Source: Escherichia phage AV108
Length of the DNA stretch: 64,000 nucleotides
Sequence record: OR352938.1
Direction: 5' to 3' (one strand)
This document shows positions 28,178 to 44,001 of this stretch, one piece after another (the stretch's first letter is position 1; each line of letters opens with the position of its first letter). A program made the translations under genes and the position numbers. The notes beneath the pieces are model-generated. The model was not told the DNA's origin, did not search any database, and worked only from the letters and a program-made list of their open reading frames with translations.

Positions 28178-28690
28178 TTATTTTAATAACTGTTCGCATT
28201 GTTTACGTAGCTTATAACGGTATTCTTTAGACCGCAGCATTTTAACTTTTTCGTAGTCTCCGTTATCATACGCACTATTAAGATCATCTTGATATGCTGC
28301 TTCCGTCCCGATTACACATACTCCAAATTGTCTACGACGGTCGGCATCTTCCATTGCTTTACGGTTCATTTCTTCAATTGAATTTTCACGACCATAATAA
28401 TATTCGTAAATGCGTTTCTTCTCTGCTTCTTTATCTGCCTTAATCTTTGCGATCTGTTCTGCTGATTCCTGTTGACGACCTAAACGCTGTAATGAGGCGT
28501 CTTTCTTTTCAAGGTAGTCAATCACGCAATCTTCAACGCTATTAAATGGAAAACGTGACTCTTTCTGCCATCGTTCACATGACCGTACAAACTCGTGTGT
28601 ATTCTTAGATGCCAGTGCCAGATCATGCACAGCACACCCATTAAGCATAGCAACCAAAGCCGCAAGACCAATCAGTTTAATCATTTTCAT
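28178..28690 (-). CDS. putative lipoprotein
   Basis: 170 aa; N-terminal signal peptide with lipobox (LIGLAALVAMLNGC); start overlaps upstream ART stop (ATGA). Confidence 0.6.
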   Translation of the reverse strand: MKMIKLIGLAALVAMLNGCAVHDLALASKNTHEFVRSCERWQKESRFPFNSVEDCVIDYLEKKDASLQRLGRQQESAEQIAKIKADKEAEKKRIYEYYYGRENSIEEMNRKAMEDADRRRQFGVCVIGTEAAYQDDLNSAYDNGDYEKVKMLRSKEYRYKLRKQCEQLLK

Positions 28691-29511
28691 TTAGTCACCT
28701 CACCGAAAATTGTAAATTGTCTACGATTCTCATCGCCGAAAGATTCTACTACGTCGTTTACCTTGACGCAAGTCCCTCGCGGTAAAATTACTTCACATTC
28801 GCAAGGGTTCCATGCAATTGACCCAACAACAAAACCTTTATGATCTTTTACGTCAATTACCCATGATACATTACAAGAATGTTGCATCTTTCCGGTCATT
28901 GATTCATATCGATTCTCACAATAAAGGCTAGTGCTGTTTGATAGCCATCCTCCAAAGATGATCGGTGTCATGCTGGTAGATACAAAGTTTTTAAAGGTAA
29001 ACTCCTTATCTTCAATGATACGCTCTATTGTCTGAATGTCAAGATGTTGACCTCGATAAAGAGTACCGTTTAACTTTTCGGTTTTATCCATGACACAATC
29101 CATCAAATCAACAATCTCTGATATCTCATCGGTCATGTCTTCTTCCCCTAAGAGAGCACCATTTACCCATTCGTATTGTTCAGACACATAATCACAGATT
29201 GCATTATATTCTGCTGGGGTTATGTTGTTATGTTTGTAATGTTTGAATACATTATCTCCAAAGTCTTCGGAGTGTACTTCATACATCACATTAATGATTT
29301 TCTTGACAAATCCATAATCTTGTGTCTCGCGCTCAAGGAAGCGGATAACCTTCACATAATCATCAAAGTTAATCTGATCGCTGATCATCTCAGTGATCAT
29401 GTAACCATTAATCCCCTCAATGTCATATGTTTCGATGTAATTATCCATACGTTCCATCATTGATTCGCGTGATTCTTCTGAAAGACGAAAATCCTGTAAT
29501 TTCTTGAACAT
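28687..29511 (-). CDS. ADP-ribosyltransferase, Alt/Mod-like (R-S-E type)
   Basis: 274 aa; LYRG...FVSTS...PCECEVILPRG matches the Alt C-terminal catalytic core (YRG, STS, E-x-E). Confidence 0.72.
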   Translation of the reverse strand: MFKKLQDFRLSEESRESMMERMDNYIETYDIEGINGYMITEMISDQINFDDYVKVIRFLERETQDYGFVKKIINVMYEVHSEDFGDNVFKHYKHNNITPAEYNAICDYVSEQYEWVNGALLGEEDMTDEISEIVDLMDCVMDKTEKLNGTLYRGQHLDIQTIERIIEDKEFTFKNFVSTSMTPIIFGGWLSNSTSLYCENRYESMTGKMQHSCNVSWVIDVKDHKGFVVGSIAWNPCECEVILPRGTCVKVNDVVESFGDENRRQFTIFGEVTK

Positions 29512-29589: not shown

Positions 29590-31641
29590 TTACATTTTAA
29601 ATTTATCTGGCATTGCGTCTACAGATACCAGATCAGCGATAAGCTGACGTAGAGTTGCCTTATCTGCTTTCTTACGTTCGGTTTTAGCTTCGCTAATGAA
29701 GCTGGAGAAAGACAGGTCAGAAGCAGGTTTAATAACACCTTCACGGATGAATGCATCACCGTCCGCGATCATTTCGCCAGATTCTTGTAATGCTGCCAGT
29801 TCATTTTTGTTCATAATATGTGCCTCAATGTAATAAGTTTCTTGTGAATCCGTTGATGCCGTAGCACGAGTTACCGTATCAAAGGATAACACAACACCGC
29901 GAGGAAGTAAAATCTCGCATTCTTTGTAAGCAAATGCTTTGTTACCTACTGGCAAGACAGGGATGTTTTCCGCGCCAGCAATGGAGAAAGCAACATTAGC
30001 GCCACCTTCACCGCGAGAGCCAGCCATAGAATCAACACCAGCAACGGCACTAGCCACGTTTGCATTCCAGCCGCCAAAAATGTTAGGTGCAAGGGAAGTG
30101 CTCACATAGTTTTTAAAGTAAAACGCTTTTTGCTTACGTGCAGTTTCCCACATTTGCGACCGGAAGTCCATACCACGATACAGAATAGTACCCGGATCAA
30201 GTTTAACGCCATAGTTGGAGAAGGCATTATCCAGTGCATCGCACATCTTGACCAATTCTTCTGGATCTGCGATGCCTTCAAACTCTTCCAGCTTACGATC
30301 AGTTAGGAAGTTGTTCATATTGATGTATGCTGCATCGGCATATTCGCTCAACACAAAACCTTCCGCGCCTGGCAGATCAAGATCAATATCTGCCATCATT
30401 TCACCCATGTTACTAGCAATTGCTTCAAACATACCGGAAGCAACATTACGTAGGGCATCGGTTTTAATCTGGGTGATATGACTACGCAGCATTTCAGCTT
30501 TTACATCTGCTGGCATAGACTGGTCTACTCGATCCATTGCTAGGGCGGTGATCTTGTTTTCGAATACTTCCTCGCTCATGATTTCTTTTAAGCGTTTGAT
30601 TGATGCTGCGATAACTTCCGCAGACAACGGATCATATTGATCCTGAACTTTTACCAGTTCGCTTACTGCGTATTTTGCATCGGCTTCGCTTTCAAAAATA
30701 GTACGCATGAAACCATAGCGAGTGATAATATCACTTGTCCAGTCATTCAGAGAACGGGCGGTTGAACGTTCTAAGGCTTGACGGTCAATCAGAGTATTAA
30801 ACTGTTTCTTAGGTTCTGCTTCGGTGATATCTTCTTCCGGTTTAAGATTAATTTTTTCTGGATGATTCACATAGTCGCTGTTATAGGTCGCTTGAGTTTT
30901 CAGCATTTCTTCTTTAGTCAAACGAGATTTAGCCGCTACGCGTTGTTCCGCTTCCGCGTTTCGTTCTTCTTCTGACACAAGACTAGCCGCATACGCTTCA
31001 TCTTTAGTCAGAGATTCACCAGTAGCCTTAGATACCCAGCGATCACCTAAATCACTTTCTACTTTAGTGAACAAGGAATCATCAAGTTTAATCCCTTTAA
31101 TCTTATCAATCGCCATACCGCGACGCTTGACAACAACTAAAGCGATCTTTTTGCTGGTCATTACTTCCTGCTGGAATACTTCAAACTTCGGTGTACGACG
31201 CACCAAACGCTCTATAACGCGCTTAACCAGTTCGGTCTTACCTTTCATGCGGGATACGTTAAAACGGAACATAACAGCGTCTAGTTGCGCTTTACGGGCT
31301 GTTTCCATAACCACATCAAAAGCACTTGACATAACTGCAATCGGGTTATCGCCTAGACCATTTTTAAGCTGTACAATACGACCGCTTTTGTTCATTTCGC
31401 ACAGTACAACATGTGCGGTCTTGTCACCCAGACGAATGATTTTAGGTGTTTTGTTGGTGAAGTTACAAAGACGGACAATCACATCTTTATCGCGTGTCTG
31501 TACTGCAAAAAGCTGTTTAGGATTCTGCTTAGGCTTTAAGCACTGTACCGGAGCAATACTACCAAAGTTTTCTTCCTCTTCCGTCAACAGCCATTTCTCG
31601 AAAGATTCAATCATTAGATCGTCGATTTCTAAGTTAAACAT
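29590..31641 (-). CDS. alt: Alt ADP-ribosyltransferase (injected internal head protein)
   Basis: 683 aa (T4 Alt 682); C-terminal ILYRG...YVSTS...YKECEILLPRG catalytic motifs. Confidence 0.85.
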   Translation of the reverse strand: MFNLEIDDLMIESFEKWLLTEEEENFGSIAPVQCLKPKQNPKQLFAVQTRDKDVIVRLCNFTNKTPKIIRLGDKTAHVVLCEMNKSGRIVQLKNGLGDNPIAVMSSAFDVVMETARKAQLDAVMFRFNVSRMKGKTELVKRVIERLVRRTPKFEVFQQEVMTSKKIALVVVKRRGMAIDKIKGIKLDDSLFTKVESDLGDRWVSKATGESLTKDEAYAASLVSEEERNAEAEQRVAAKSRLTKEEMLKTQATYNSDYVNHPEKINLKPEEDITEAEPKKQFNTLIDRQALERSTARSLNDWTSDIITRYGFMRTIFESEADAKYAVSELVKVQDQYDPLSAEVIAASIKRLKEIMSEEVFENKITALAMDRVDQSMPADVKAEMLRSHITQIKTDALRNVASGMFEAIASNMGEMMADIDLDLPGAEGFVLSEYADAAYINMNNFLTDRKLEEFEGIADPEELVKMCDALDNAFSNYGVKLDPGTILYRGMDFRSQMWETARKQKAFYFKNYVSTSLAPNIFGGWNANVASAVAGVDSMAGSRGEGGANVAFSIAGAENIPVLPVGNKAFAYKECEILLPRGVVLSFDTVTRATASTDSQETYYIEAHIMNKNELAALQESGEMIADGDAFIREGVIKPASDLSFSSFISEAKTERKKADKATLRQLIADLVSVDAMPDKFKM

Positions 31642-32241: not shown

Positions 32242-32760
32242 TTAGTTATTTTTTAATTGCTCATCTTGCAATAGGGCAATCACATGCTGGCGATGTTCTT
32301 CCGATTGAGGCACACCGAAAAAGTTTGTTTTGTAGAAATACTCTAATCGGTCTTCTCGTGTGCTCTCTTCCATCATGATCGCGGGTAGTCCGAGATTTCG
32401 GAAACGTCGCTTTTCTGCTGGCGTAAAATCACTGTAATACAACATAGAATCATCATTACAAGCAATGCTAAACTCATCCTTCATAAAGGAGAATATTGCG
32501 TTTAAACGCTGTTTACCGTCCACGATTTCGATCTCATAGCGAGAGCCATCATCAATCTTAGCCATTGCGATAGCACCAACCGGAAAATCATTAATCAGGT
32601 TTTCGATAAACATACGTTTGTTTTCGGTGTCCCATACTAAAGGACGCTGATAATCTGGGTTCATGTTGATATAGCCATCTTCTAACCATGCATCATAAAC
32701 AGAGATGACAAAGTTTTTAGTATTGGTATAGTAACGGCGTTTAGGCGTTAAACGGTTCAT
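32242..32760 (-). CDS. DUF262 / ParB-like nucleotide-binding domain protein
   Basis: 172 aa from ATG 32760 (AGGAG RBS); PDYQRPLVW and IVDGKQRLNAIF match the DUF262 (GmrS-like) signature. Confidence 0.6.
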   Translation of the reverse strand: MNRLTPKRRYYTNTKNFVISVYDAWLEDGYINMNPDYQRPLVWDTENKRMFIENLINDFPVGAIAMAKIDDGSRYEIEIVDGKQRLNAIFSFMKDEFSIACNDDSMLYYSDFTPAEKRRFRNLGLPAIMMEESTREDRLEYFYKTNFFGVPQSEEHRQHVIALLQDEQLKNN

Positions 32761-32761
32761 G

Positions 32762-33094
32762 TTATAGTCTCCTGAATGGATCATCACGTAAATCAATATC
32801 TTTTAAGAACTCAACCCATGAATGCCGGATATTGTTCTTAATTCTCCAGATAAGCGCAGGGATTGAACGCTCTCCCATCTGGAAGTATGGATCATATGAT
32901 CCGTATGCCCAATATGCTACTACAATTCCACAATCAGCGCAATAGTATTCTATTTCACTTGCTGGCGACCAAAGTCCATCAATATGATCGGTGATCTTGC
33001 TTTCGATGTTATGGCTATGACAATCAGGGCAACGGATGCAATGACCTTGTTTATCGTAATTTGACGTTAGCGAATACTTAAACAATCTCATCAT
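32762..33094 (-). CDS. Cys-rich zinc-ribbon-like protein
   Basis: 110 aa with CIRCPDC...CADCG; start overlaps the MTase-like gene stop as ATGA. Confidence 0.55.
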   Translation of the reverse strand: MMRLFKYSLTSNYDKQGHCIRCPDCHSHNIESKITDHIDGLWSPASEIEYYCADCGIVVAYWAYGSYDPYFQMGERSIPALIWRIKNNIRHSWVEFLKDIDLRDDPFRRL

Positions 33095-38795: not shown

Positions 38796-38975
38796 TTACA
38801 TAACAATCACGCCAGCCGTTGAAAGTTGATGTTTCAACTGAGCATTTTCTGCTACCGTCAAATCAATGATTTCTTGTGACGCTGCAATCATATAGCCATT
38901 GGTGATATTGTTTTGCATCAGTTCAATGGTTTCTTCGTTGTAGCGGATTTTAGCGATGATTTCGTTGAAGTTCAT
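38796..38975 (-). CDS. hypothetical small protein (59 aa)
   Basis: ORF with GGAGAA RBS downstream of promoter 39010-39038. Confidence 0.4.
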   Translation of the reverse strand: MNFNEIIAKIRYNEETIELMQNNITNGYMIAASQEIIDLTVAENAQLKHQLSTAGVIVM

Positions 38976-39009
38976 AATTGATTCTCCTAGTTCGTTTCGG
39001 TATGTGTGT

Positions 39010-39038
39010 AGTATAGGGGATCACCGATCCCCTGTCAA
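39010..39038 (-). promoter_or_regulatory. sigma70-like early promoter with palindromic spacer (PeSL-type)
   Basis: TTGACA - GGGGATCGGTGATCCCC - TATACT on minus strand. Confidence 0.6.
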
Positions 39039-39050
39039 CAACTTTTTGAA

Positions 39051-39527
39051 TTATTTTTCTTGATGCTCGCGATCGTACTTTTCGAAATAAAATTCTACTG
39101 GCTGGTCGTGGATTGACAGCAAGCCAAAGCGTTTAGCCGCTCGCAATCCCATATTGCGCTGAATGTACTTCTGGAAGTTCTCGCGTATACACTTACGCCA
39201 GGATTCTAAGCCCATGCAGCTTTTATAAAGATTGCATTGCACACATGCCGGATTCATGTTATCAAGTATATCATGCTCCGGTTTATGCATTCCTACAACC
39301 TTATACTTCCACGATCCATCATCATTACGGGCAATTCGTCCATTTTCATCATAGACAACCTTTGAGCGTCGTAATACTGGTTTGATATGGTCTGCGTGCC
39401 AGCGATCCCCTAGTTCCTCGCCACAATAGGCACAACGTCCACCGTATTTCATTTTCAGGATCTGACGTTGCTCTTTCTTTGACAATTTTTTAGGTTTAGG
39501 GGCTTTCGCCCCTTCATTATCACACAT
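39051..39527 (-). CDS. HNH endonuclease
   Basis: CAYCG...HADHIKP...N...CVQCN fits the HNH Cys/His signature; start overlaps ligase stop by 8 nt; true start may be an internal Met. Confidence 0.65.
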   Translation of the reverse strand: MCDNEGAKAPKPKKLSKKEQRQILKMKYGGRCAYCGEELGDRWHADHIKPVLRRSKVVYDENGRIARNDDGSWKYKVVGMHKPEHDILDNMNPACVQCNLYKSCMGLESWRKCIRENFQKYIQRNMGLRAAKRFGLLSIHDQPVEFYFEKYDREHQEK

Positions 39528-41016
39528 CGAATACCTCTTTTACTGTATTTGCAGCGGTCTTGTCGTAGCGAATACGTTTGATGATCGGGAGAAATAAAGA
39601 GAACTCCGGTTCATCTTCTTTACGTGATTTGCTGCGAATGTACCCGTTGCATGTCATCTCGATGACTTTTCCAATCAGGTTATGACGGTCAGCCCATAAC
39701 ATTTCTCGGTCAAGTTCATTTCGACGATCGAACGGAATTACACGTTCGATACCATCATCACCTTTTTCGGTTGTAGTGTCGGTTAATCCCGATCCGGTGT
39801 TAGTCATCATTCGTCCACACGCACTACGGACAGTAAAACCGCCTACCTTATTGGGGTCTTTACTATGCGGATATACATCAACAATTTCCGCGTCGAAGTC
39901 AATCACTTCTTTAAATTTAACCTGATCTTTACTACGGCGATCTTCAAATACACCATGTAAATTTTTAAGGATAATACCTTCTAAGCCCATGTTGACATAA
40001 CGATGATATACTTCGCGAGCTTCATCGATATTGTTAACTACAGTGTTTTCGATGATCTGAACACGAGGATCGTTAAGTTCTTCAACAATCTGTTTTAGTT
40101 CTTCAAATCGATCTTTATATTGCTTCGTTGCTTTCTCGTTTCCGTAGTACACATCACGGTCGATAACATCCCAGACAGTGTAAACAATACATTGGGCTTC
40201 TTCTTTTGGAATAGTTCCTTTCAGTGATTTGTTGAGGATACCATTTCCGGTCTGACGGTCTGCAACAACGGATTCTTTCACTGCTTCCGCTACTGGCGTT
40301 AATGGCATTTCCTCTTCTTCAAATATCCATGACAGAGTACCATCATAAACGCTCTCAACGAAGTTCTGCGCTGGTGTTTGCGAAAGGGTAGGCATATATA
40401 CCAATTCACCATCTAGAACAATTCCACGGCCTCGTAGACGCTCTAAAACCGCAAACAAATCATCAAGTCCTTGATAGGTATTACCTGAGCGGGTATAGAT
40501 TGCTAATGTTTCCCCGTCAATATCAGCCATACCACGAGCGCCATCGCTTTTAAGTTGTGCATACGCCGGATACTTGATATTAGCAATAGTCTTATCAGAA
40601 CATGACGATGCAAGGTGACACGGTTGCTGGGGGATCAGTTTCTTCCATACCTTGTTTGCAGTGGTAGCGGAACAACCACATTCCAGATCACGATTCAGGA
40701 CCATCATTGCAACTTTAGCATCATCTTCTGACAAGCAAGTCAGAGTATCGGTAACTAGCTGTAATGCTGCGTTACCAGTTACTTGACGCGTGGCAAGTTT
40801 ATTTTTAAAGACCTGTAATGCACCGGATAAAGACAATACAGACGAATAGCGAGATGGTTTATCGTATTTCTTTACGCCAAACGTAACCTGTTTGCAATAT
40901 GCCAGATAAAAGCATTCTTTCAGTGTTTCATTGCTTGCAGATTCTTTCAGGATCTTTTCTTTCAGCGATGTTTTGTCGGTCGCTGCAAGCTGGTTAATGA
41001 TATTAAGAATTGACAT
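39520..41016 (-). CDS. 30: ATP-dependent DNA ligase (T4 gp30-like)
   Basis: KSDG adenylation motif (AQLKSDGARGM) and collinearity with T4 ligase as recalled; ATG at 41016 (track start 41022 is GTG). Confidence 0.88.
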   Translation of the reverse strand: MSILNIINQLAATDKTSLKEKILKESASNETLKECFYLAYCKQVTFGVKKYDKPSRYSSVLSLSGALQVFKNKLATRQVTGNAALQLVTDTLTCLSEDDAKVAMMVLNRDLECGCSATTANKVWKKLIPQQPCHLASSCSDKTIANIKYPAYAQLKSDGARGMADIDGETLAIYTRSGNTYQGLDDLFAVLERLRGRGIVLDGELVYMPTLSQTPAQNFVESVYDGTLSWIFEEEEMPLTPVAEAVKESVVADRQTGNGILNKSLKGTIPKEEAQCIVYTVWDVIDRDVYYGNEKATKQYKDRFEELKQIVEELNDPRVQIIENTVVNNIDEAREVYHRYVNMGLEGIILKNLHGVFEDRRSKDQVKFKEVIDFDAEIVDVYPHSKDPNKVGGFTVRSACGRMMTNTGSGLTDTTTEKGDDGIERVIPFDRRNELDREMLWADRHNLIGKVIEMTCNGYIRSKSRKEDEPEFSLFLPIIKRIRYDKTAANTVKEVFDV

Positions 41017-41482
41017 TTTCACCTCGTTTTGTTAAACGTTCACGAATATCATTGAGGATACTACAAAATTCCGATTCAGTCAATATAGTCTTTAACGGAT
41101 CAGTTCCACCTATGCTATGACGCAATTTCTTATTTCCGGTAGCGAGTAATGCTTTACAAAATTCTGGGTTATTCCGTGCCATCGTAACAAATGCCAGATG
41201 TACCAGTCTGTAATAATGCTCACTCATTCGATGAATAGGGCGACCCTGAAAATATAACATGTGATTCTCAATCTTTTCAGTTCTTCCGGTTCTTTTTGCT
41301 TTGCCACCGTGCATCAAAAAGATTTCTCTTTGTCTCTGAGGGTTCTTAAATCTTAGCCCCTGTAAAAATCCTTCTGTGCTGTTAATATCGCAACCAAATA
41401 GACGGAATGGTCTTTTATTGAAATTACTCAATTCACCCGATGGATAAGGTCCACCCGCATAGATATCAATTTCAGAAGTCAT
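41003..41482 (-). CDS. NADAR (YbiA-like) domain protein, putative
   Basis: 159 aa; GELSNF, STEGFLQGLRF, ALLATGNKKL.HS parallel the YbiA/NADAR pattern as recalled. Confidence 0.5.
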   Translation of the reverse strand: MTSEIDIYAGGPYPSGELSNFNKRPFRLFGCDINSTEGFLQGLRFKNPQRQREIFLMHGGKAKRTGRTEKIENHMLYFQGRPIHRMSEHYYRLVHLAFVTMARNNPEFCKALLATGNKKLRHSIGGTDPLKTILTESEFCSILNDIRERLTKRGENVNS

Positions 41483-41636
41483 TGAAACTAATCTCGCTAA
41501 TCAGAGAGAACGGATCATAATCGTCATTAGGAATATCGATAGTAATCGAATGAGGGTTTACCCATACACCAAACTGGTCTTCTTCGGTTAATACTTCGGT
41601 ATGGATTTCGTGGATGTTTACATTCATAGTTTTCAT
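41472..41636 (-). CDS. hypothetical small protein (54 aa)
   Basis: Short ORF between gp31 terminator and NADAR-like gene; weak evidence. Confidence 0.25.
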   Translation of the reverse strand: MKTMNVNIHEIHTEVLTEEDQFGVWVNPHSITIDIPNDDYDPFSLISEISFNDF

Positions 41637-41679
41637 AATAAAATTTCCTTAATAATCAATAACTTACAAAATCATATAG

Positions 41680-41708
41680 TCAAAATATAGGCGGGATTAT
41701 TTCCCGCC
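41680..41708 (-). terminator. rho-independent terminator after gene 31
   Basis: GGCGGGA-loop-TCCCGCC hairpin; minus-strand U-rich tract. Confidence 0.6.
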
Positions 41709-41719
41709 GTTTAAAATCA

Positions 41720-42043
41720 TTAACCGTAAACTACCACAATATTCTGTTTGTGTGTTACAGTCCATTTCAGGTCGATCTCTTCTTCCTTCTTAACGCCGTT
41801 AATAACGTCTGGATGAGGAACTTTATTCATCTTGCCATGTGGCAGTAGAACAGTTTTACCCAGCAATTCTTTATCTACAGTCTCGCCAATATCAATAATC
41901 TTACCTACCAGCGGAATCTCACCCATAGTGCGCTTTTGCTCAATAATGATCCCCATAGAGCTTTTTACTTCGGTCCCTGCGCTTTCTGCTTTCGCTTCGA
42001 TAATTACATAATCACCAAGTGCTTTAGGAGTTTTAACGGTCAT
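41720..42043 (-). CDS. 31: GroES-like co-chaperonin for capsid folding (T4 gp31-like)
   Basis: 107 aa; size, GroES-like Gly/Val-rich beta pattern and position near cd and ligase. Confidence 0.75.
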   Translation of the reverse strand: MTVKTPKALGDYVIIEAKAESAGTEVKSSMGIIIEQKRTMGEIPLVGKIIDIGETVDKELLGKTVLLPHGKMNKVPHPDVINGVKKEEEIDLKWTVTHKQNIVVVYG

Positions 42044-42084
42044 AATTTTATTACCTCTTCAAATCAATACAGTTTAACGATGAA

Positions 42085-42399
42085 TTATTTATAAATTTCG
42101 ACGATCTGCGCTGGAGTCAGCCCGTCCACATTAATCAGACTATCAAGCCCAAAACTACGGAAACCTTCAACTGCAATTTCATATACTGGCAAAGATGTTT
42201 CTGATTCTTTACGCGGTTTTTCAACATTCGGAACTAACCACTTTTCGTATGTTTCGAAAGGCATCAGTGCCGGATCTCGCGTGGCGATCATCTCGCGGAC
42301 AGTACCATCTTTCTTAGTAAACTGCAAAGAGTGAGTACCAACCGAAAACATTTTCTTTAGTGCTTCACGAAGTGCGATATTATCAATTTGTTCGGTCAT
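42085..42399 (-). CDS. hypothetical protein (104 aa)
   Basis: ATG at 42399 (track start 42405 is TTG); no motif recognised. Confidence 0.5.
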   Translation of the reverse strand: MTEQIDNIALREALKKMFSVGTHSLQFTKKDGTVREMIATRDPALMPFETYEKWLVPNVEKPRKESETSLPVYEIAVEGFRSFGLDSLINVDGLTPAQIVEIYK

Positions 42400-42898
42400 T
42401 ATCAATACCCTTCAAATCTGTCAATAATGCTTTTGGAATACGCGTGATCGTAATATCTGCATTATTCAGAATATCAGCCCAATCACGCCCACCATTTCGA
42501 TCATATGTGTCGCAATAGTATAGATATTTAATTCCACTGTTTGCAATTGCTTTAGCGCAATCTGGACACGGTGAAGCAGTACACCACATACTAGCGCCTT
42601 CAATCGATACACCGCTACGGGCAGCAAACAAAATAGCATTTAATTCAGCGTGGATCTCGTTTTTCTGTGACCATGCACTATGCTCTGGTCGTTTTTCTGG
42701 GATCATTTTGCCGTCATCATCCAGCCAACCGTTTTTATGTGCATGACAGCTACAATTTACTTGCCCTGCTGGAGTTCCGTTAAATCCAGTAGAAATGATT
42801 CGCCCGTCTTTTTCGATCAGTGCGCCTACCTTCCACGAAACACATTTAGAGTTCTTTGCGATCAGATAGGCGATCTGCATGTAAGTTTGTGACAACAT
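42383..42898 (-). CDS. cd: dCMP deaminase
   Basis: Zinc-binding HAE (IHAELNAI) and PCxxC (SPCPDCAKAI) motifs of the cytidine/dCMP deaminase family. Confidence 0.85.
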   Translation of the reverse strand: MLSQTYMQIAYLIAKNSKCVSWKVGALIEKDGRIISTGFNGTPAGQVNCSCHAHKNGWLDDDGKMIPEKRPEHSAWSQKNEIHAELNAILFAARSGVSIEGASMWCTASPCPDCAKAIANSGIKYLYYCDTYDRNGGRDWADILNNADITITRIPKALLTDLKGIDNDRTN

Positions 42899-42919
42899 AA
42901 TATAATCCTCACATATTAA

Positions 42920-43123
42920 TTAACCGTATACGCGAAAGTATTCTACTGATCCGTCGCTATACTGTTTTACATTGAATGTATTCACACCATGATTATTTCT
43001 CATGATGACATATACACTGCGACGTTCATCGCTAAACGGCATAACTGGCGCTGGTTCAATATCAACACTAAAACCACGTTTAGCAAGTGCTTCGCCTAAT
43101 TGCTTGAGTTTATCGGTAAACAT
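42920..43123 (-). CDS. hypothetical protein (67 aa)
   Basis: ORF whose ATG overlaps the pseT stop (TAATG). Confidence 0.45.
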   Translation of the reverse strand: MFTDKLKQLGEALAKRGFSVDIEPAPVMPFSDERRSVYVIMRNNHGVNTFNVKQYSDGSVEYFRVYG

Positions 43124-44001
43124 TAAAATTCTCCGTAGTTAACCTGAAAACATTCTACACCAATTGAGCGGTACATGTCAACCACTTGATCACGGTCATC
43201 TACCGCCAAAACAACATGATAACGCGGTGCAATTTCAGAGAAGAAGATCTCTTTCTTCACTTCATGATCAGGACGACGATCATTAGTTTCACGTTGAAAG
43301 TGATCACTAGGTTCAATACCCTGTTCACGCAACCATTGCAGAGTATCTTCTTCGCAAACATCTTCGCGTCCTGAGCATGTAATGATACGATAACCATTAT
43401 CACGATACAGTTTAAGCATTTCGATCACTTGCGGACGCGGTTTATCTTCTTTGACCTTTGTCCAGTCAAACGGATGACGACCGCCCTTATCCGCTAATGT
43501 TCCATCAATATCAAAGATCACTGCCTTCGGCAGCATGGTATTCGGTTTGTATACTTCTTGACCCATATATTCCTGCATCAGATAAAATTGGTTGCGCAAA
43601 TGAGAAAGTGGGATTGCTTTCTCTCCGCGATAGAAATTACGTTTCTTTAGTGTCTCAAATGATTCATTGAACACTTGTTCAGTATACACCGCGTTAAATT
43701 CTTTTGCAAGTTCTTTGTAGAATACACGATGTTTTTCTTTCAGGTTAGTATCAGAGATAATGATACTAAATCCGCGTGATAGAGTCTCACGAGCAATCAT
43801 TCTCTGAATAGACTCTACCAGCTTTTCTTTTTCCTTAGTATACTTGTATTTCAAATGTGAGTCAACACCAAACAACATAAGACGAAGATCATCACGATTC
43901 ACATTACGATAATTACTAAACCGTTTACATGTTTCCATAGCCCATGTAGTTTTACCAGACCCAGAACAACCAACGGTTAAAATCACTTCACATTTCGGCA
44001 T
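43123..44001 (-). CDS. pseT: polynucleotide 5'-kinase / 3'-phosphatase
   Basis: Walker A GCSGSGKTT near the N-terminus and HAD motif VIFDIDGTL; ATG at 44001 with AGGAGA RBS (track start is GTG). Confidence 0.88.
   Translation of the reverse strand: MPKCEVILTVGCSGSGKTTWAMETCKRFSNYRNVNRDDLRLMLFGVDSHLKYKYTKEKEKLVESIQRMIARETLSRGFSIIISDTNLKEKHRVFYKELAKEFNAVYTEQVFNESFETLKKRNFYRGEKAIPLSHLRNQFYLMQEYMGQEVYKPNTMLPKAVIFDIDGTLADKGGRHPFDWTKVKEDKPRPQVIEMLKLYRDNGYRIITCSGREDVCEEDTLQWLREQGIEPSDHFQRETNDRRPDHEVKKEIFFSEIAPRYHVVLAVDDRDQVVDMYRSIGVECFQVNYGEF

Follow-up and report, generated by a model that had tools for sequence, protein, structure and literature searches.

Background

Papers published from 2023 to 2026 divide the NADAR superfamily into four families and name the gp30.3 proteins of phages 'phage NADARs'. 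The gp30.3 protein of phage T4 removes ADP-ribose (ADPr) from guanine in DNA in vitro, and not from thymidine; it is also active on guanine-ADPr in RNA and inactive on cytidine-ADPr, the removal of guanine-ADPr from RNA being common to all NADAR families. Johannesman et al. (Nat Commun 2025, PMC11825919) renamed the T4 protein AdfN (anti-DarT factor NADAR) and showed that it is both required and enough for T-even phages to resist DarTG1, a bacterial toxin-antitoxin defence. Here we analyse gene 30.3 of Escherichia phage AV108 (sequence record OR352938.1), which lies at positions 41003..41482 of a 64,000-nucleotide stretch of DNA (hereafter the window), and propose that it is likely to encode an AdfN-like enzyme.

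The phages covered by the AdfN study (T2, T4, T6, RB69 and Bas35-47) are all Tevenvirinae, with the requirement on DarTG1 hosts shown for T4 and T2. T4 AdfN is impaired by the substitutions E36A and K43A, and by a 15-residue C-terminal truncation which is the natural allele of RB69 (PMC11825919). An independent transposon screen found 30.3/adfN to be dispensable on E. coli K-12 and lost on DarTG1 hosts. T4 AdfN fails a rescue assay in uninfected cells, yet protects the phage. The fold, chemistry and biological role of the gp30.3 family are thus already published, and the gene considered here is a named member of it (RB49 gp30.3).

Gene 30.3 in the RB49-like phages

The gene is an open reading frame (ORF) of 159 codons with an ATG start and a TAA stop at 41005..41003. 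A sequence-only reading of the window had described this ORF, leaving its strand unstated, and had picked out a NADAR-like pattern in its product; the ORF proved to be as described, on the minus strand, with each of the quoted motifs in place (GELSNF at residue 16, STEGFLQGLRF at 35, ALLATGNKKL.HS at 111 and ILNDIRERL at 142).

41003..41482, minus strand: gene 30.3, putative adfN orthologue, predicted phage-type NADAR ADP-ribosylglycohydrolase, 159 amino acids

Over the 4 kb around 30.3, identity to Krischvirus genomes (RB49, JSE, Phi1, kvi and others) is 97.5-99.1%, and the window is that of a Krischvirus, an RB49-like relative of T4. The DNA of 30.3 is 100% identical to the copy in phage kvi and its product 100% identical to RB49 gp30.3 (CAD79437). 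A full-length, gapless copy with no frameshift, at 95.4-100% nucleotide identity, is present in all 59 Krischvirus records of the phage collection, in almost all of which it is labelled 'hypothetical protein'. Comparison with four diverged alleles gave a ratio of non-synonymous to synonymous polymorphism (pN/pS) of 0.03-0.04, with 10-20 synonymous against 1-2 non-synonymous changes, and by this measure the gene is under strong purifying selection. The low pN/pS, the 59 intact copies and the match to a phage protein family described below together establish 30.3 as a real gene rather than a chance ORF. Homologues are widespread: an exhaustive phmmer search recovered 973 cluster representatives at E<=0.001 and 432 at E<=1e-10, and by tblastn 1,509 phage records contain a homologue, among them phages infecting Klebsiella, Aeromonas, Acinetobacter, Vibrio and Sinorhizobium. 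No copy was present in the 5,426 complete E. coli genomes searched, which indicates that 30.3 is not a prophage or host gene.

Family membership and predicted fold

The protein matches the Pfam model PF08010 (Phage_30_3) with 132.5 bits against a cut-off of 36 (E=1.2e-38) over profile positions 2-138 of 138, and phrog_652 with E=2.5e-45. The phage clade thus has a Pfam model of its own, separate from the generic NADAR model PF08719, and two family members (P0059 and P0061) match both. When a family profile built from 65 sequences was compared with the PDB, E. coli YbiA ranked first (E=0.0019) and the Phytophthora NADAR 8bau second; hhalign aligned this profile to YbiA with 95.5% probability (E=1.3e-8), the 142 aligned columns covering essentially both proteins in full. 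An AlphaFold2 model, built on a 64-sequence alignment from which the T4 sequence was left out, attained a mean predicted local distance difference test score (pLDDT) of 96.7 and a predicted template modelling score (pTM) of 0.90. Foldseek searches of the PDB with this model returned a probability of 1.00 only for YbiA (E=1.1e-5) and for PnNADAR with ADP-ribose (E=3.8e-3), and the predicted structure shows the alpha-helical core flanked by small beta-sheets that characterizes the YbiA fold. By profile and by predicted structure, the 30.3 protein is a NADAR-fold member of the phage gp30.3 family, comprising only the core domain without an N-terminal extension.

Longer metagenomic relatives (P0058, P0061, P0019, P0021, P0024, P0039 and P0076) carry the gp30.3-type domain in other architectures. 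It is fused to a calcineurin-like phosphoesterase in P0058 and to BspA-type leucine-rich repeats in P0061, is matched over two stretches of P0019 and of P0021, and occupies the C-terminus of proteins of approximately 470-500 amino acids whose N-terminal 320 or so residues have no Pfam match.

Active-site residues and the C-terminal helix

Alignment with characterized NADARs, and the secondary structure of the model, place the following elements within the gene:

41372..41374, minus strand: codon GAA for E37, matching the catalytic Glu to which the distal ribose binds (T4 E36; PnNADAR E43; E. coli C7 NADAR E88); by alignment
41351..41353, minus strand: codon AGA for R44, in the column of the phosphate-coordinating Lys (T4 K43; PnNADAR K50; C7 NADAR K95), a natural Lys-to-Arg variant; by alignment
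41117..41119, minus strand: codon CAT for H122, the His of the last beta-strand that marks phage NADARs; by alignment
41009..41077, minus strand: C-terminal alpha-helix, residues 136-158, intact and exceeding the T4 helix by 7 residues; by DSSP on the model and alignment to T4

E37 is invariant in all 65 family representatives, and aligns with T4 E36 and with the SEHYFQ-motif Glu of YbiA and 8bau; the role of this Glu in binding the distal ribose has been described (PMC11543638, PMC11825919). H122 is equally invariant (65 of 65) and is set by hhalign opposite the catalytic Glu in the 'LVEHT' motif of YbiA. The last-strand residue differs by family, being His in phage NADARs, Glu in the YbiA family and Asp in DarG1. 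The R44 column is more variable, with Lys in 57 of the representatives, Arg in four, Gln in two, and Thr and Val in one each; Arg is common to the protein studied here, the metagenomic P0002, which is 69% identical to it, and a homologue from Acinetobacter phage MD-2021a. The intact C-terminal helix bears on activity in T4, where AdfN lacking the last 15 residues, either in the RB69 form or as a truncated T4 protein, shows reduced activity (PMC11825919).

Comparison with described NADAR proteins

The nearest described counterpart is T4 AdfN, with which the 30.3 protein shares the PF08010 family, a core-only NADAR fold, the catalytic Glu, the phage-specific His and the C-terminal helix. The two genes also have the same orientation and the same place between genes 31 and 30, and their products are of similar length (159 amino acids here and 152 in T4), the difference lying in seven additional C-terminal residues. 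The T4 30.3 and ligase genes have 30.2 and 30.1 between them, whereas here 30.3 overlaps the ligase directly; the small upstream gene 31.-1 is unrelated to T4 30.4.

The DarG1 proteins, NADAR antitoxins of DarTG1 (E. coli C7 NADAR; G. lovleyi NADAR, PDB 8bat), differ more widely. The 30.3 protein has His in place of Asp on the last strand, lacks the N-terminal extension and shows approximately 11% identity in structural alignment; its gene is an orphan with no adjacent DarT1 gene, its neighbours being 31.-1 and the DNA ligase gene, and the nearest ADP-ribosyltransferase genes being of the Alt type, 8-12 kb away. YbiA (PDB 2b3w) is 21-23% identical and has Glu on the last strand where the phage protein has H122; it is encoded by a chromosomal, LexA-regulated housekeeping gene, whereas 30.3 is phage-borne. 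AdfN(Bas32) and AdfN(Bas60) resemble 30.3 in being phage-borne orphan NADARs, which counter DarTG1 in T5-like and Vequintavirinae phages; by their published description they differ in belonging to other, independently acquired NADAR clades and in neutralizing DarT1 without infection (PMC11825919).

Proposed function and alternative explanations

Based on these comparisons we consider it likely that RB49-type 30.3 is an AdfN-like guanine-ADPr hydrolase that counters DarTG1, despite the Arg at the Lys position. The protein would be the Krischvirus orthologue of AdfN, a single-domain NADAR-fold hydrolase expressed from the early-gene block, and given this position of its gene it is probably made early in infection. 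Upon infection of a DarTG1-carrying E. coli, DarT1 would ADP-ribosylate the N2 of guanine in phage DNA and thereby block replication. The 30.3 protein would then bind the ADP-ribose, E37 contacting the distal ribose, R44 the diphosphate, and the last-strand H122 lying at the catalytic centre, and cleave the N-glycosidic bond between ribose and guanine, such that ADP-ribose is released, guanine is restored and replication can proceed. For the T4 orthologue it has been demonstrated that guanine-ADPr is hydrolysed on DNA and RNA and that the protein is necessary and sufficient against DarTG1, and by analogy the RB49-type protein would have the same activity and in vivo role. The suggestion of the sequence-only reading that this gene is a candidate counter-measure to DNA ADP-ribosylating toxins gains support from the T4 AdfN data by the same analogy.

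Several observations weigh against this proposal. The protein is only 36-39% identical to T4 AdfN, and has Arg44 where the latter has Lys43. The equivalent K95R mutant of C7 NADAR hydrolyses guanine-ADPr in vitro without rescuing cells from DarT1 in vivo (Schuller et al., PMC11543638), which calls for some caution over Arg44. The assignment to NADAR made in the sequence-only reading holds with PF08010 and is clear in the more sensitive hhalign match to YbiA, but comes close to failing in a plain search with the generic PF08719, which scored 15.5 bits (E=0.021) against a gathering cut-off of 35.1. The NCBIfam model 'NADAR family anti-phage protein' gave a weak match (E=0.023), and the PADLOC models matched neither the 30.3 protein nor T4 AdfN. 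T4 AdfN reaches its full effect only during infection by Tevenvirinae, and an unknown phage cofactor is implied (PMC11825919); Krischvirus lies outside the Tevenvirinae and lacks T4 genes 30.1 and 30.2 at the 30.3 locus. Its genomes also lack the genes for 5-hydroxymethylcytosine (5-hmC) synthesis and DNA glycosylation found in Tequatrovirus and Mosigvirus, and a literature search for Krischvirus or RB49 tested against DarTG found no relevant test. The DNA substrate that a Krischvirus NADAR meets is further touched by a report on phages TB34 and SAP, which are more than 99.9% identical and have no known 5-hmC synthase or glucosyltransferase genes, yet differ in that one has canonical cytosine and the other fully modified cytosines (PMC13390438).

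The substitution at R44 raises the alternative that the protein is a NADAR hydrolase whose activity has been shifted or weakened, such that it acts on another target or protects only partially against DarTG1; candidate targets would be guanine-ADP-ribosylated RNA or the product of another ADP-ribosyltransferase toxin (YarT-, ScARP- or pierisin-like). The uncoupling of in vitro hydrolysis from in vivo rescue in C7 K95R, and the removal of guanine-ADPr from RNA by all NADAR families, are in keeping with such a shift, as is the retention of Arg by a subclade (the RB49 type, the Acinetobacter phage and P0002) under purifying selection, which points to a stable state rather than a recent lesion. 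Nevertheless, Arg remains basic and would keep the phosphate-binding function, C7 K95R is catalytically active, and all other catalytic and structural hallmarks match T4 AdfN. Moreover, the T4 enzyme likewise fails to rescue uninfected cells while protecting the phage, and failure in that toxicity assay is therefore not predictive of failure in infection. We accordingly hold a shifted or weakened activity to be unlikely, and give a similarly low chance to the possibility that the Arg-bearing RB49/Acinetobacter-phage subclade has an altered substrate range or efficiency, or has become independent of the T-even cofactor, a possibility also prompted by the place of Krischvirus outside the Tevenvirinae, its lack of genes 30.1 and 30.2 and its different DNA chemistry.

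The window also encodes two ADP-ribosyltransferases on the same strand as 30.3:

29590..31641, minus strand: Alt-like ADP-ribosyltransferase, 683 amino acids (Pfam ADPrib_exo_Tox)
28687..29511, minus strand: second ADP-ribosyltransferase, 274 amino acids, just downstream of the Alt-like gene (Pfam ADPrib_exo_Tox)

Their presence, and the fact that 30.3, ligase and alt are near neighbours both in T4 and in an Acinetobacter phage, could suggest that 30.3 serves the phage's own transferases as an eraser or partner, reversing self-inflicted ADP-ribosylation. This is very improbable, as Alt, ModA and ModB modify arginine in proteins, whereas the T4 NADAR acts on guanine-linked ADP-ribose in DNA and RNA and not on thymidine- or cytidine-linked ADP-ribose, and the C7 NADAR, when tested, left ADP-ribosylation of RNA phosphate ends unprocessed. 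Furthermore, T4 can dispense with adfN on E. coli K-12 lacking DarTG1, the loss of the gene being specific to DarTG1 hosts, and the 30.3 homologue is unlinked to ADP-ribosyltransferase genes in Vibrio, Aeromonas, Klebsiella, Salmonella and Sinorhizobium phages. The earlier suggestion of a partnership with the Alt-type transferases accordingly finds no support: no functional link to these genes emerged, and the T4 data speak against self-erasing. Least likely of the readings considered is that 30.3 encodes a housekeeping N-glycosidase of the YbiA kind, with riboflavin-pathway intermediates or some other small-molecule N-riboside as its substrate. Among solved structures the nearest in fold is indeed E. 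coli YbiA, which is annotated as an N-glycosidase, but the last-strand Glu that defines the YbiA family is replaced by His in the 30.3 protein, the phage clade clusters closest to DarG1 rather than to YbiA (PMC11825919), and the T4 orthologue has a demonstrated anti-defence role.

Genomic neighbourhood

Gene 30.3 forms part of a chain of overlapping genes on the minus strand, in the order 31.-1, 30.3, 30 and HNH:

41472..41636, minus strand: gene 31.-1, upstream neighbour, 54 amino acids (PHROG 15277, E=2e-41; no Pfam match)
41472..41482, minus strand: overlap of the 31.-1 stop and the 30.3 start, 11 nucleotides, ATGACTTCTGA
41003..41016, minus strand: overlap of the 30.3 end and the gene 30 ATG, 14 nucleotides, ATGTCAATTCTTAA
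39520..41016, minus strand: gene 30, ATP-dependent DNA ligase, downstream neighbour, given for context and outside the NADAR function (Pfam DNA_ligase_A_M, E=2.8e-22, and annotation in related records)
39051..39527, minus strand: HNH endonuclease gene, overlapping the ligase stop by 8 nucleotides

The overlap between the 30.3 stop and the ligase start, pointed out in the sequence-only reading, amounts to 14 nucleotides, with the ligase ATG at 41016..41014 and its GAGG ribosome-binding site at 41025..41022, within the 30.3 coding sequence. It is annotated identically in RB49, JSE, ECD7, Makalu_001, MIZ4 and GEC-3S; a mechanical ORF list offers an alternative ligase GTG at 41022, giving an overlap of 20 nucleotides, whereas the annotated start in relatives is the ATG. 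The successive overlaps of 11, 14 and 8 nucleotides indicate a tightly packed and probably translationally coupled chain. The local order rnlA, pseT, cd, 31.1, 31, 31.-1, 30.3, 30 is that of the T4 early genes with fewer small ORFs.

We considered whether adjacency to the ligase gene reflects a conserved functional linkage and rejected this, as the neighbourhoods of 30.3 homologues vary among phages. Their surroundings are tRNA genes in Aeromonas AS4, Klebsiella TU02 and Salmonella S16, and hypothetical genes in Sinorhizobium phiM12; a Vibrio phage homologue adjoins deoxyribonucleotidase and exonuclease genes, and in an Acinetobacter phage one gene stands between the homologue and the ligase. 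Gene 31.-1 was also considered as a counterpart of T4 30.4, with a view to a conserved partner or cofactor, and this relationship was dismissed: the two occupy equivalent positions but show no similarity.

A promoter and terminator scan of 38800..43200 yielded sites no more numerous than in shuffled controls, and no dedicated 30.3 promoter. Its sole stand-out was a terminator-like hairpin at 41690..41708 on the minus strand, between genes 31 and 31.-1 (GGCGGGA-AATAA-TCCCGCC, followed by a T-rich tail), with seven pairs, six of them G-C, which might reduce read-through into the 31.-1/30.3/30/HNH chain. The 4-kb query maps to several Krischvirus genomes (MIZ2/3/6, JSE and KMB43) as two pieces that span 5.5-6.2 kb, pointing to strain-to-strain insertions or deletions in the HNH/ligase neighbourhood, which possibly stem from the movement of homing endonucleases. 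Further upstream, the gp31.1 homologue (42085..42405, minus strand), whose gene start overlaps the end of the dCMP deaminase gene, contains a WYL_2 or Sm-like SH3 beta-barrel domain (E=1.2e-9). Elsewhere in the window, a 184-amino-acid ORF (32242..32796, minus strand) matches the N-terminal domain of GmrSD type IV restriction enzymes (Pfam GmrSD_N, E=7e-20), which act on modified DNA; such a phage-borne GmrSD_N-like fragment could serve as a decoy or inhibitor, or as a weapon against rival phages.

Conclusions

The analysis of 30.3 adds no new biology beyond the 2023-2026 literature; its practical outcome is a correction to the annotation of Krischvirus genomes and a prediction of resistance to DarTG1-type guanine ADP-ribosylation. 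In RB49-like coliphages, which are often proposed for therapy, the gene is intact and under selection, and the anti-DarTG1 factor AdfN would thereby extend beyond the T-even subfamily. The natural Lys-to-Arg variant gives a modest, testable way into the question of what NADAR enzymes require in vivo, and if the RB49-type NADAR did prove to be shifted in activity or free of the cofactor, it would provide a natural comparison for the in vivo specificity of these enzymes.
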